Program-made: the position numbers and the translations under genes
In this document: piece after piece, positions 33,127-60,891 of the stretch
How positions within the stretch are numbered: position 1 is the first letter of the stretch
Layout: every line of letters starts with the position of its first letter
Origin: Escherichia coli
Lineage (GTDB): Bacteria; Pseudomonadota; Gammaproteobacteria; Enterobacterales; Enterobacteriaceae
Strand: one strand, 5' to 3'
Length of the DNA: 64,000 nt
Assembly: GCF_017348835.2 (NCBI RefSeq)
Contig: NZ_CP071375.1
Notes under the pieces: model-generated
Databases searched by the model: none
What the model was told of the DNA's origin: nothing
Seen by the model: the letters and a program-made list of their open reading frames with translations, nothing else

Positions 33127-33142
33127 TGCAGGGTTCGTGCCA
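33127..33142 (-). promoter_or_regulatory. Candidate sigma-54 (-24/-12) promoter for astC
   Basis: Minus-strand sequence TGGCACGAACCCTGCA (GG-N10-GC), about 70 nt upstream of the astC start; the ast operon is known to be NtrC/sigma-54 dependent. Confidence 0.55.
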
Positions 33143-33225: not shown

Positions 33226-33499
33226 TAAAGTGAATACGTTTGTGATATGGATGGATAAAAAGAATAAAAAACGCAATGTTATGCAAAAGTAAAATATAAT
33301 TCTGGAATTGTGATCATTGACGAAATTTACTGGAAATTACTGCGCCATTCTGACGCAGCGCGCACCAAAAGCGGGCATTTTTTGCGCCATCGTTGACATC
33401 ATTAACAACCATCGATCAAATCACTTAACAACAGGCGGTAAGCACAGCGAAATTCTGCTACCATCCACGCACTCTTTATCTGAATAAATGGCAGCGACT

Positions 33500-57774: not shown

Positions 57775-58521
57775 TCAGAATTTGTAGGTGATCCCGGTAG
57801 AAATCAGGCCAGTCCAGGATTTATCCACCATTGGGCTGTCAGTAACTTCATCAGACAGACGGGTGTAGCGCGCGGTACCGTAAACACTCCAGTCGCCGAG
57901 GAAGTTGTAGCTGGCGCTCAGCTCCAGGTAAGGGCTCCAGCTGTCGTTCGGGTTATAGCCACGCAGACCGCTGCGAGCGGACTCTTTGCGCGATACGCCA
58001 TAATAGTATTCGTTCTGGTTTTCGCTGTTCCACTGCACACCAATACCCGGAGTCACGGTCAGGCCGCCGTTGGTGTAATGATACAACCAGGCCATATCCC
58101 AGACGATGCCGTTACTGTTATCCAGGGTATCGCCAGCCAGGGTGGTACGCAGGTAACCGTACTGGGTAAAGTGAGCATAAGACAGACCAGCCATCATGGT
58201 GCTCTTACGGTCATCCAGGTGACGCATTTGGTGATCGCCACTGTCTTTAGCTTTGAAGTAAAGCGGCGACCAGTAAGCGGTAATTGAAAGTTTATCCGTT
58301 GCGTCATTCCACAGGTAGTAACCACCACCTAAGCCACGGAACCAGAAGTTATCGCCTTCATAGTTGATTACCGGTACTGGGTAAACATCGGTATCGTAAT
58401 CTTTATATGGGTGTTCAACGACACCTACGCCTGCGCCCAGGGAAAATTTACCTTCAGCGTGCGCTACGCCTGCAGACGTTGCGATAAGCACTCCAAGTGC
58501 CAGAAGTTTGAGTTTGGTCAC
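57775..58521 (-). CDS. mipA: MltA-interacting outer-membrane scaffold protein
   Basis: 248 aa ORF with signal peptide (MTKLKLLALGVLIATSAGVAHA) and terminal Phe; recognised as MipA. Confidence 0.9.
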   Translation of the reverse strand: MTKLKLLALGVLIATSAGVAHAEGKFSLGAGVGVVEHPYKDYDTDVYPVPVINYEGDNFWFRGLGGGYYLWNDATDKLSITAYWSPLYFKAKDSGDHQMRHLDDRKSTMMAGLSYAHFTQYGYLRTTLAGDTLDNSNGIVWDMAWLYHYTNGGLTVTPGIGVQWNSENQNEYYYGVSRKESARSGLRGYNPNDSWSPYLELSASYNFLGDWSVYGTARYTRLSDEVTDSPMVDKSWTGLISTGITYKF

Positions 58522-58837
58522 AATTAATCATTCCTTAAACAAATGTTTAGCGGGCGACAAAGTTTACCCGTCAATACATCGAAACCCAACCTTTTTACGT
58601 TTTCATTTTTTAAAGTAACTGTTTAATTTTCCTGACGCGGATGACACCGCGCTTACAGCCAAATGAATTTAGCGTTACTGGCGAGCCTGGTCTTTACATT
58701 AATTATGCAAAATTTATGGATGAGTTGTTGATATGCCATTGAAATTAAGAAAGCCGTGTAGGCAAGTTTTCCATTTGCCATCTACGCTTAATTTTGAAGG
58801 TGTATCACCGGGCACGTTGTTCTCATCGTCGATAAAA

Positions 58838-58853
58838 TGGCATGAGAGTTGCT
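58838..58853 (+). promoter_or_regulatory. Candidate sigma-54 (-24/-12) promoter upstream of yeaG
   Basis: TGGCATGAGAGTTGCT (GG-N10-GC) about 100 nt upstream of the yeaG ATG; yeaGH is reported to be nitrogen-starvation (NtrC) induced. Confidence 0.5.
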
Positions 58854-58956
58854 GTGTTTTAGCAAGAGACGTCGTTCAGTTTACCTCTTCCGGGAGCCTC
58901 TACTATTCATATGAACGGCTCTTAACCTGTGCTAAAAAACGAAAGGACGGCATACC

Positions 58957-60891
58957 ATGAATATATTCGATCACTATCGCCAGCGATATGAAGCTGCCAA
59001 GGACGAAGAGTTCACACTGCAGGAGTTTCTTACCACTTGTCGGCAAGATCGCAGTGCTTATGCCAACGCGGCTGAGCGGCTATTGATGGCTATCGGTGAG
59101 CCTGTCATGGTCGATACAGCCCAGGAACCCAGACTTTCTCGACTCTTTTCTAACCGGGTCATTGCACGTTATCCGGCGTTTGAAGAGTTTTACGGCATGG
59201 AAGACGCGATTGAACAGATTGTCTCTTATCTGAAACACGCGGCTCAGGGGCTGGAAGAGAAGAAACAAATCCTGTATCTGCTGGGGCCTGTGGGTGGGGG
59301 TAAATCATCGCTTGCTGAGCGACTGAAATCATTAATGCAGCTCGTACCGATTTATGTATTGAGCGCCAACGGTGAGCGTAGCCCGGTCAACGATCATCCG
59401 TTCTGTCTTTTCAATCCGCAGGAAGATGCGCAGATTCTGGAAAAAGAGTATGGCATTCCTCGCCGTTATCTCGGCACCATCATGTCGCCGTGGGCGGCAA
59501 AACGTCTGCATGAATTTGGTAGCGATATTACTAAGTTCCGGGTAGTGAAGGTCTGGCCGTCCATTCTGCAACAAATTGCTATCGCCAAAACAGAGCCCGG
59601 TGATGAGAACAACCAGGACATCTCCGCGCTGGTAGGGAAAGTCGATATTCGTAAACTCGAACACTACGCGCAGAATGACCCAGACGCCTATGGCTATTCC
59701 GGCGCACTGTGCCGCGCCAACCAGGGGATCATGGAATTCGTTGAGATGTTTAAAGCACCGATTAAAGTGCTGCATCCCTTGTTAACCGCCACTCAGGAAG
59801 GTAACTACAACGGGACGGAAGGTATCTCCGCCCTGCCGTTCAACGGGATTATTCTTGCCCACTCGAACGAGTCCGAATGGGTCACTTTCCGTAATAACAA
59901 AAACAACGAAGCCTTCCTCGATCGTGTTTACATCGTGAAGGTGCCGTATTGCTTGCGCATTTCCGAAGAGATCAAAATCTACGAGAAATTGCTTAATCAC
60001 AGTGAATTGACTCACGCCCCATGCGCCCCTGGCACGCTCGAAACACTGTCACGTTTTTCCATTCTTTCGCGCCTGAAAGAGCCAGAAAACTCCAGCATTT
60101 ATTCAAAGATGCGGGTTTATGATGGCGAAAGTCTGAAAGACACCGATCCCAAAGCCAAGTCGTATCAGGAATATCGTGACTACGCCGGTGTCGATGAAGG
60201 GATGAACGGTCTGTCGACGCGTTTTGCGTTTAAGATCCTCTCCCGCGTGTTCAACTTCGATCATGTAGAAGTGGCGGCAAACCCGGTCCATCTGTTCTAC
60301 GTCCTGGAACAGCAGATCGAGCGCGAGCAGTTCCCACAAGAGCAGGCAGAACGCTATCTGGAGTTCCTGAAAGGTTATCTGATCCCGAAATATGCCGAGT
60401 TTATCGGCAAAGAGATCCAGACGGCCTACCTTGAATCCTATTCCGAATATGGGCAAAACATTTTCGACCGTTATGTTACCTACGCGGATTTCTGGATTCA
60501 GGATCAGGAGTATCGCGATCCGGATACCGGGCAGCTGTTTGACCGAGAATCTCTTAACGCCGAGCTGGAGAAAATCGAGAAACCGGCGGGGATCAGTAAT
60601 CCAAAAGATTTCCGCAACGAGATTGTTAACTTCGTACTGCGCGCCAGAGCGAATAACAGCGGACGCAATCCGAACTGGACCAGCTATGAAAAACTGCGCA
60701 CGGTTATCGAGAAGAAAATGTTCTCCAATACCGAGGAGCTGTTGCCAGTTATTTCGTTTAACGCCAAAACGTCAACCGACGAGCAAAAGAAACACGACGA
60801 CTTTGTCGACCGTATGATGGAAAAAGGCTACACCCGTAAACAGGTGCGTTTACTGTGCGAATGGTATTTGCGCGTACGTAAATCGTCTTAA
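58957..60891 (+). CDS. yeaG: PrkA-family serine protein kinase
   Basis: 644 aa ORF with P-loop (GPVGGGKSS); recognised as YeaG. Confidence 0.95.
   Translation: MNIFDHYRQRYEAAKDEEFTLQEFLTTCRQDRSAYANAAERLLMAIGEPVMVDTAQEPRLSRLFSNRVIARYPAFEEFYGMEDAIEQIVSYLKHAAQGLEEKKQILYLLGPVGGGKSSLAERLKSLMQLVPIYVLSANGERSPVNDHPFCLFNPQEDAQILEKEYGIPRRYLGTIMSPWAAKRLHEFGSDITKFRVVKVWPSILQQIAIAKTEPGDENNQDISALVGKVDIRKLEHYAQNDPDAYGYSGALCRANQGIMEFVEMFKAPIKVLHPLLTATQEGNYNGTEGISALPFNGIILAHSNESEWVTFRNNKNNEAFLDRVYIVKVPYCLRISEEIKIYEKLLNHSELTHAPCAPGTLETLSRFSILSRLKEPENSSIYSKMRVYDGESLKDTDPKAKSYQEYRDYAGVDEGMNGLSTRFAFKILSRVFNFDHVEVAANPVHLFYVLEQQIEREQFPQEQAERYLEFLKGYLIPKYAEFIGKEIQTAYLESYSEYGQNIFDRYVTYADFWIQDQEYRDPDTGQLFDRESLNAELEKIEKPAGISNPKDFRNEIVNFVLRARANNSGRNPNWTSYEKLRTVIEKKMFSNTEELLPVISFNAKTSTDEQKKHDDFVDRMMEKGYTRKQVRLLCEWYLRVRKSS

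Follow-up and report, generated by a model that had tools for sequence, protein, structure and literature searches.

The mipA-yeaG interval of Escherichia coli, a divergent control region with sigma-54 and sigma-S promoters for yeaGH

The interval between mipA and yeaG (58522-58956, 435 bp) in the window, the 64,000-nucleotide stretch of Escherichia coli DNA analysed here, is an ordinary divergent control region with two promoters for yeaG. The sigma-54-type motif that it contains is, with very little doubt, the NtrC-activated promoter of the yeaGH stress-kinase operon, arranged in tandem with a sigma-S promoter. Occupancy by sigma-54 and NtrC, a transcription start site (TSS) of sigma-S type, induction by nitrogen starvation and regulation by the small RNA SdsR are all published, and the present work adds coordinates and conservation. 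The original prediction, which had read the motif as a sigma-54 promoter, was thus correct in its interpretation but not new: the motif is the already documented sigma-54/NtrC promoter of yeaGH.

Organization of the mipA-yeaG interval

The interval separates mipA (57775-58521, minus strand) from yeaG (58957-60891, plus strand). A segment of 701 bp around the sigma-54 site is 100% identical to an O157:H7 chromosome and was found in 5,425 of 5,426 complete E. coli genomes, with the two-promoter core present in 5,424 of the 5,426; the 439 bp from the beginning of the interval to the yeaG start codon (58522-58960) differ from K-12 MG1655 by a single base. Over its whole length the window is not colinear with NZ_AP018488.1, the O157:H7 sequence with the 100% match at the yeaG region: astC lies approximately 9.8 kb further along in the window, which points to a strain-specific insertion or deletion at some place upstream. 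The description of the interval as unusually long is roughly true, since it ranks third among 61 gaps (median 80 bp) in a crude list computed from the open reading frames of the 64-kb window, practically tied with the divergent astC-xthA gap of 433 bp. Its designation as a 435-bp leader proved wrong, because the mipA promoter, the sigma-S promoter and the sigma-54 promoter all lie inside it; most of the interval is divergent promoter DNA, and the leader itself measures 93 or 161 nt, depending on the promoter used.

Read from left to right, the interval opens with the mipA leader and promoter; a spacer of poor conservation and a conserved block follow, then the two yeaG promoters, sigma-S first and sigma-54 after it, and last a leader shared by both yeaG transcripts. 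The mipA 5' UTR occupies 34 nt on the minus strand (58522-58555), its start at 58555 corresponding to TSS 1864530 of Kim et al. (2012), and the 50 nt located 5' of this mapped start (58556-58605, minus strand) form the mipA promoter region, with a -10-like TAAACT and a promoter sequence listed together with the TSS. Two other matches fall at the mipA end: a CRP-like site with one mismatch (58507-58522) overlies the mipA start codon, and a one-mismatch sigma-54-like motif, TGGCACTTGGAGTGCT, lies in the mipA orientation within the first mipA codons (58487-58502, minus strand). The latter is probably a chance match, since the main text of the sigma-54 ChIP-seq paper (Bonocora et al., 2015) makes no mention of mipA. 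A simple sigma-70 and terminator scan returned just two weak promoter-like sites on the minus strand and no terminator.

Alignment of the region across relatives revealed five conserved islands: the block at 58716-58745, the sigma-S promoter, the sigma-54 element, CTTCCGGGAGCC (58887-58898), and the SdsR site with the ribosome-binding site. The original picture of the interval was right about the sigma-54 promoter and missed both the sigma-S promoter and the SdsR target site.

Tandem sigma-54 and sigma-S promoters upstream of yeaG

The sigma-54 promoter, TGGCATGAGAGTTGCT, spans 58838-58853 on the plus strand, with a -24 element TGGCAT and a -12 element TTGCT, the GG at 58839-58840 and the GC at 58851-58852 being arranged as GG-N10-GC. 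These are exactly the positions originally proposed, and the distance to the yeaG ATG, given there as about 100 nt, is 104 nt from the end of the motif. The sequence matches TGGCAY-N5-TTGCW without mismatch and is the sole exact match on both strands of the 64-kb window. As 0.25 such matches are expected by chance and at least one occurred in 23 of 100 shuffles, the match by itself is only mildly improbable, and therefore suggestive; it gains weight from its position, orientation and conservation and from published ChIP data. With the yeaG ATG at 1864932 (U00096.2) set to 58957, the motif centre falls at 58845 and the predicted sigma-54 start at 58864, 12 nt past the GC and 93 nt 5' of the ATG.

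The same sequence has been recovered as a sigma-54 binding site in both E. coli and Salmonella. ChIP-seq peak OS18 (FAT 6), with the 17-mer motif ATGGCATGAGAGTTGCT on the plus strand, was attributed to yeaG, its TSS being predicted 19 bp past the motif centre and 93 nt from the ATG (Bonocora et al., 2015); the yeaG site had earlier only been predicted in EcoCyc, and binding was confirmed by that ChIP-seq. In Salmonella, TGGCATGAGAGTTGCTTT is the ChIP-chip site of yeaG (STM1285), with a signal ratio of 4.1 (Samuels et al., 2013). Induction of yeaGH by nitrogen starvation, as originally proposed, likewise agrees with the literature: an NtrC ChIP-seq peak is located at yeaGH (Brown et al., 2014), yeaG mRNA is 36-fold higher 20 min after ammonium run-out (Figueira et al., 2015), and the operon is described as NtrC-activated, with two adjacent promoters dependent on E-sigma-54 and E-sigma-38 (McQuail et al., 2024, with reviews and other papers of the same group).

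The distribution of the motif was followed in a scan with the YeaG N-terminus, one genome per species, which yielded 80 loci from Escherichia to Shewanella and Rheinheimera. An exact TGGCAY-N5-TTGCW was present upstream of yeaG in the same orientation in 27 of the 35 scanned Enterobacterales loci, at 94-155 nt from the ATG (242 nt in Brenneria). These loci belong to Escherichia, Citrobacter, Pseudescherichia, Pluralibacter, Leclercia, Kluyvera, Superficieibacter, Cedecea, Erwinia, Pantoea, Serratia, Rahnella, Pectobacterium and Brenneria. No exact match was found in any scanned locus of Vibrionaceae, Shewanella, Aeromonas, Pseudoalteromonas, Colwellia or Rheinheimera. The sequence separating the two promoters varies freely, which argues for selection on the sigma-54 motif itself.

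Among the Enterobacterales, the motif is absent from Yersinia, Hafnia, Edwardsiella and three 'Enterobacter'-like genomes. Six loci of Yersinia, Hafnia and the 'Enterobacter'-like genomes carry a sigma-70-like TTGACC-17-CATAAC(A) at -130 to -90 from the yeaG ATG and a different leader, ending in GTTCCCA...AGGACGG; Edwardsiella is not of this type. Decayed versions, such as CGGGGAGTTCGGGTGCT (Pseudocitrobacter) and TTGGCATAAGGGTTTCT, occur at about -95 to -125 from the yeaG ATG in two Pseudocitrobacter and in two Pantoea insect symbionts, where the GC is changed to TC or worse; a few other lineages also show decay of the motif. The Pseudocitrobacter and Pantoea symbiont genomes keep the sigma-S -10 element, the upstream block and the leader, and their loci look like natural variants that have lost sigma-54 control.

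These data bear on the possibility that the motif is a chance or vestigial match, and that nitrogen starvation acts on the sigma-S promoter through ppGpp and RpoS accumulation. Such a reading could draw on the frequency of exact matches in shuffled windows (about one in four), on the many sigma-54 ChIP sites with no known output (Bonocora et al., 2015), on the sigma-S type of the only yeaG start listed by Kim et al. (2012) and on the absence of a canonical NtrC site. It is nevertheless highly improbable given an exact match that 27 of 35 scanned Enterobacterales loci share in the same position despite divergence of the flanking spacer, the decay of the motif in the two Pseudocitrobacter, the two Pantoea insect symbionts and a few other lineages, and an NtrC ChIP signal and fast 36-fold rise at 20 min that fit control by NtrC.

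The second promoter, of sigma-S (sigma-38) type, spans 58758-58795 on the plus strand and contains an extended -10 element CTACGCT (58782-58788), a sigma-S-style sequence with a C at -13 (CTAnnnT) that is kept across Enterobacterales. It precedes the only yeaG start in the table of Kim et al. (2012), TSS 1864771, which is preceded by ...GCCATCTACGCTTAATTTTG and corresponds to 58796 in the window, 68 bp upstream of the predicted sigma-54 start and giving a leader of 161 nt. In line with this assignment, yeaG reads fall from 5730 to 26 in a Salmonella rpoS mutant (approximately 200-fold rpoS dependence), and those of the yeaG 5' region, STM14_1559, from 589 to 1. The comparison with mapped starts thus returns a sigma-S-type TSS, yet the operon is described with both sigma-54 and sigma-38 promoters rather than with a sigma-S promoter only, and the condition originally named as refuting the sigma-54 reading does not apply.

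The 30-bp conserved block, GATGAGTTGTTGATATGCCATTGAAATTAA (58716-58745), is centred at about -66 from the sigma-S start. It reads GATGAGTT(G/A)TTGATATG(C/T)CATTGAAAT and is kept from Escherichia to Serratia and Pectobacterium, its Serratia version being an inverted repeat, AGTCAT-TGAT-ATGACT. As it is retained in Pseudocitrobacter despite the loss of the sigma-54 motif, the block probably serves the sigma-S promoter. Scans of 58400-59100 with the consensus sites of NtrC, IHF, Lrp and CRP, and with the extended -10 consensus, placed an IHF-like core inside the block, as a one-mismatch consensus on the minus strand (58721-58733). An Lrp ChIP signal at yeaG has been reported.

The presence of two promoters also concerns the Salmonella reporter data. 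With a constitutive enhancer-binding protein, yeaGH increased 2.5-fold, below the 3-fold cut-off of the authors, and a yeaG promoter fusion was equally or more active without rpoN; both the weak microarray effect and the rpoN-independent activity were attributed to the other promoter, the fusion result being explained by other promoters on the cloned fragment (Samuels et al., 2013). The fusion result would also be compatible with a mainly negative role of the sigma-54 site, in which a closed holoenzyme sitting at +43 to +57 of the sigma-S transcript blocks or dampens read-through unless NtrC fires, the motif then being a gate in addition to a promoter. The site does lie between the mapped sigma-S start at 58796 and yeaG, and the sigma-54 holoenzyme occupies promoters as a stable, inactive complex (Bonocora et al., 2015). 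This gating appears unlikely, both because the authors of the fusion explained their result by other promoters and because yeaG is very highly expressed through sigma-S in stationary phase with sigma-54 present.

For the preferred reading, an NtrC-activated sigma-54 promoter, an enhancer was sought between 58450 and 59100, where the canonical NtrC site (TGCACC-W4-TGGTGCA) was not found. The best full site (58693-58709) has five mismatches, which is chance level, since 42 such sites occur per 64 kb, and the sole half-site-like hexamer near yeaG is GGTGTA at 58799. The astC upstream region served as control. Its sigma-54 motif, TGGCACGAACCCTGCA (33127-33142, minus strand), matches the published ChIP-seq motif CTGGCACGAACCCTGCA of OS17, and two tandem NtrC-like sites, TGCGCCATTCTGACGCA and CGCACCAAAAGCGGGCA, with four mismatches each (33341-33377), lie approximately 225-260 bp upstream, within the astC-xthA gap. 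The published NtrC ChIP bin of yeaGH (Brown et al., 2014) maps to 58846-58926, on or downstream of the sigma-54 promoter; it cannot locate the enhancer, because comparison with the sigma-54 ChIP-seq paper (Bonocora et al., 2015) gives the same downstream offset at nac, astC and ddpX. A candidate overlapping this bin, and attractive for that reason, was the palindrome GCAC-N7-GTGC, present with one mismatch as GCTC-N7-GTGC at 58918-58932. It was rejected as a downstream NtrC site, since the distance between its halves varies among Enterobacterales (7 to 12 nt) and a separate constraint accounts for each of them, the 3' strand of a hairpin for one and the SdsR site for the other.

Overall, sigma-54 RNA polymerase would bind the -24 GG and -12 GC at 58838-58853 as a closed complex, which phosphorylated NtrC would remodel using ATP when nitrogen runs out, so that transcription would begin at about 58864 and yield a 93-nt leader. 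The promoter 68 bp upstream drives yeaGH in stationary phase and under other stresses. Both transcripts share a leader with a putative stem-loop and with an SdsR site just upstream of the ribosome-binding site, and through this SdsR site translation is lowered in long-term starvation. In this scheme, the precise position of the sigma-54 start and the site and manner of NtrC contact with the DNA are inferences. A wider combination can be envisaged, in which NtrC dispenses with a canonical enhancer, acting from solution or via weak or non-canonical sites, a parked sigma-54 complex gates sigma-S read-through 43-57 nt into the transcript, and the block at 58716-58745 and the stem-loop at 58892-58923 bind regulators new to yeaGH; that all of this should hold together is improbable.

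The shared leader and the 75-codon open reading frame

The leader of the sigma-54 transcript extends over 93 nt (58864-58956, plus strand) from the TSS predicted by Bonocora et al. (2015), and the segment from -93 to +63 has been cloned as the yeaG 5' UTR (McQuail et al., 2024). Pairing of SdsR at -31 to -22 from the AUG lowers YeaG translation, as demonstrated by a compensatory-mutation reporter test on that segment (McQuail et al., 2024). In the window this pairing site, CCTGTGCTAA, occupies 58926-58935 on the plus strand, and its TGTGCT is invariant in the alignment. A duplex calculation using the SdsR seed region only, with the seed taken from MG1655, gave -19.1 kcal/mol over 58925-58954, a value equalled by 3 of 500 shuffles. 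Downstream of it, the Shine-Dalgarno sequence AAGGA (58943-58947) and the ATG (58957-58959) of yeaG form an element (58943-58959, plus strand) whose GAAAGGACGGCAT..ATG varies little or not at all between species.

Just 5' of the SdsR site, a stem-loop may form at 58892-58923 on the plus strand, where GGGAGCC (58892-58898) pairs with GGCTCTT (58917-58923). When the segment is excised and folded, the minimum free energy (MFE) structure contains the stem in 17 of 18 Enterobacterales species, with five pairs only in Rahnella; the loops differ between species, compensatory changes occur in a few instances and the per-species z-scores are weak to modest. RNAalifold, run on a MAFFT alignment of 17 leaders, did not recover the GGGAGCC/GGCTCTT hairpin and returned a weak six-pair stem around the SdsR site and the Shine-Dalgarno sequence, with no covariation. 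Taken whole, the E. coli leader is no more stable than its shuffled versions (z = 0.47), and a search of Rfam with 58300-59200 gave no match at E<=1. The conserved stem is, consequently, suggestive only. The E. coli MFE structure also contains a long-range stem, GAGACGUCGUUCA/UGAACGGCUCUU, which is confined to Enterobacteriaceae and competes with the hairpin, whose conservation is wider. A mini-ORF of four codons, ATG AAC GGC TCT TAA (58911-58925), which shares bases with the 3' arm of the hairpin, probably has no significance, since its ATG reads ACG or ACC in several genera.

The 75-codon open reading frame listed at 58733-58960 on the plus strand is a chance open frame and not a gene, and the original judgement that it lacks a convincing ribosome-binding site and is probably untranslated is well supported. 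The mapped start at 58796 lies 63 nt, and the predicted sigma-54 start 131 nt, downstream of its ATG, which is therefore part of neither known transcript. The nearest Shine-Dalgarno-like bases, GGATGAG (58714-58720), are 12-16 nt from the ATG, which is too distant. The frame is also broken in relatives: it has no ATG and a shorter open stretch in E. albertii, 7 open codons only in a second E. coli representative, 43 open codons and no start codon in Citrobacter, and 6-60 unrelated codons in more distant genera. No CDS is annotated at 58733-58960 in the MG1655 record, curated small proteins included, or in the O157 RefSeq records. The ribosome-profiling data consulted point the same way, the small-ORF supplement of Stringer et al. 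(2021), obtained under non-inducing conditions, containing no yeaG or mipA entry and none at 18665xx-18669xx.

Two features could nonetheless recommend this frame, or its 47-codon in-frame version beginning with TTG at 58817, as a real upstream ORF coupled to yeaG: its stop overlaps the yeaG start (ATGA), and a hypothetical gene, STM14_1559, is annotated in the yeaG 5' region of Salmonella 14028. STM14_1559 was, however, read by its own authors as possibly the yeaG 5' non-coding region, and, with an ATG upstream of both starts, no well-placed Shine-Dalgarno sequence, a frame interrupted in the second E. coli, start-less in Citrobacter and truncated in E. albertii, and no trace in the MG1655 annotation or the table of Stringer et al. 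(2021), a functional upstream ORF is barely credible.

Significance and comparison with known promoters

Beyond correct annotation, the importance of these results is small, since the literature already covers the promoter, its activator, the sigma-S partner and the sRNA site of the leader. The 75-codon ORF of the gene caller should be dropped, and the interval is better labelled a divergent dual-promoter region than a leader. The additions made here, namely the distribution of the motif across relatives and the conserved 5' UTR hairpin, are modest. The comparison across genomes cleanly illustrates how a deeply conserved stress operon can gain or lose sigma-54 control in particular lineages, and the absent NtrC enhancer and the conserved block pose small questions for those working on yeaGH.

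The closest known system is yeaGp of K-12 and of Salmonella (STM1285), which has the identical core 16-mer, gene, orientation and 93-nt distance (Samuels et al., 2013; Bonocora et al., 2015); nothing of substance differs from K-12 yeaGp in the window, which derives from an O157:H7-like strain. The astC promoter (astCADBE) resembles that of yeaG in being a sigma-54 -24/-12 promoter within a divergent gap of approximately 433 bp, with sigma-54 and NtrC binding recorded by the ChIP studies that also cover yeaG, but it possesses two recognisable tandem NtrC-like sites, whereas yeaG has none above chance and has, in addition, a tandem sigma-S promoter. In glmY, glmZ and rpoH, as in yeaGH, a sigma-54 promoter and a second promoter of the sigma-70 family serve one operon, the second masking rpoN dependence in reporter assays; unlike in those cases, the two yeaG starts do not overlap, lying 68 bp apart, and the partner promoter is sigma-S-dependent.
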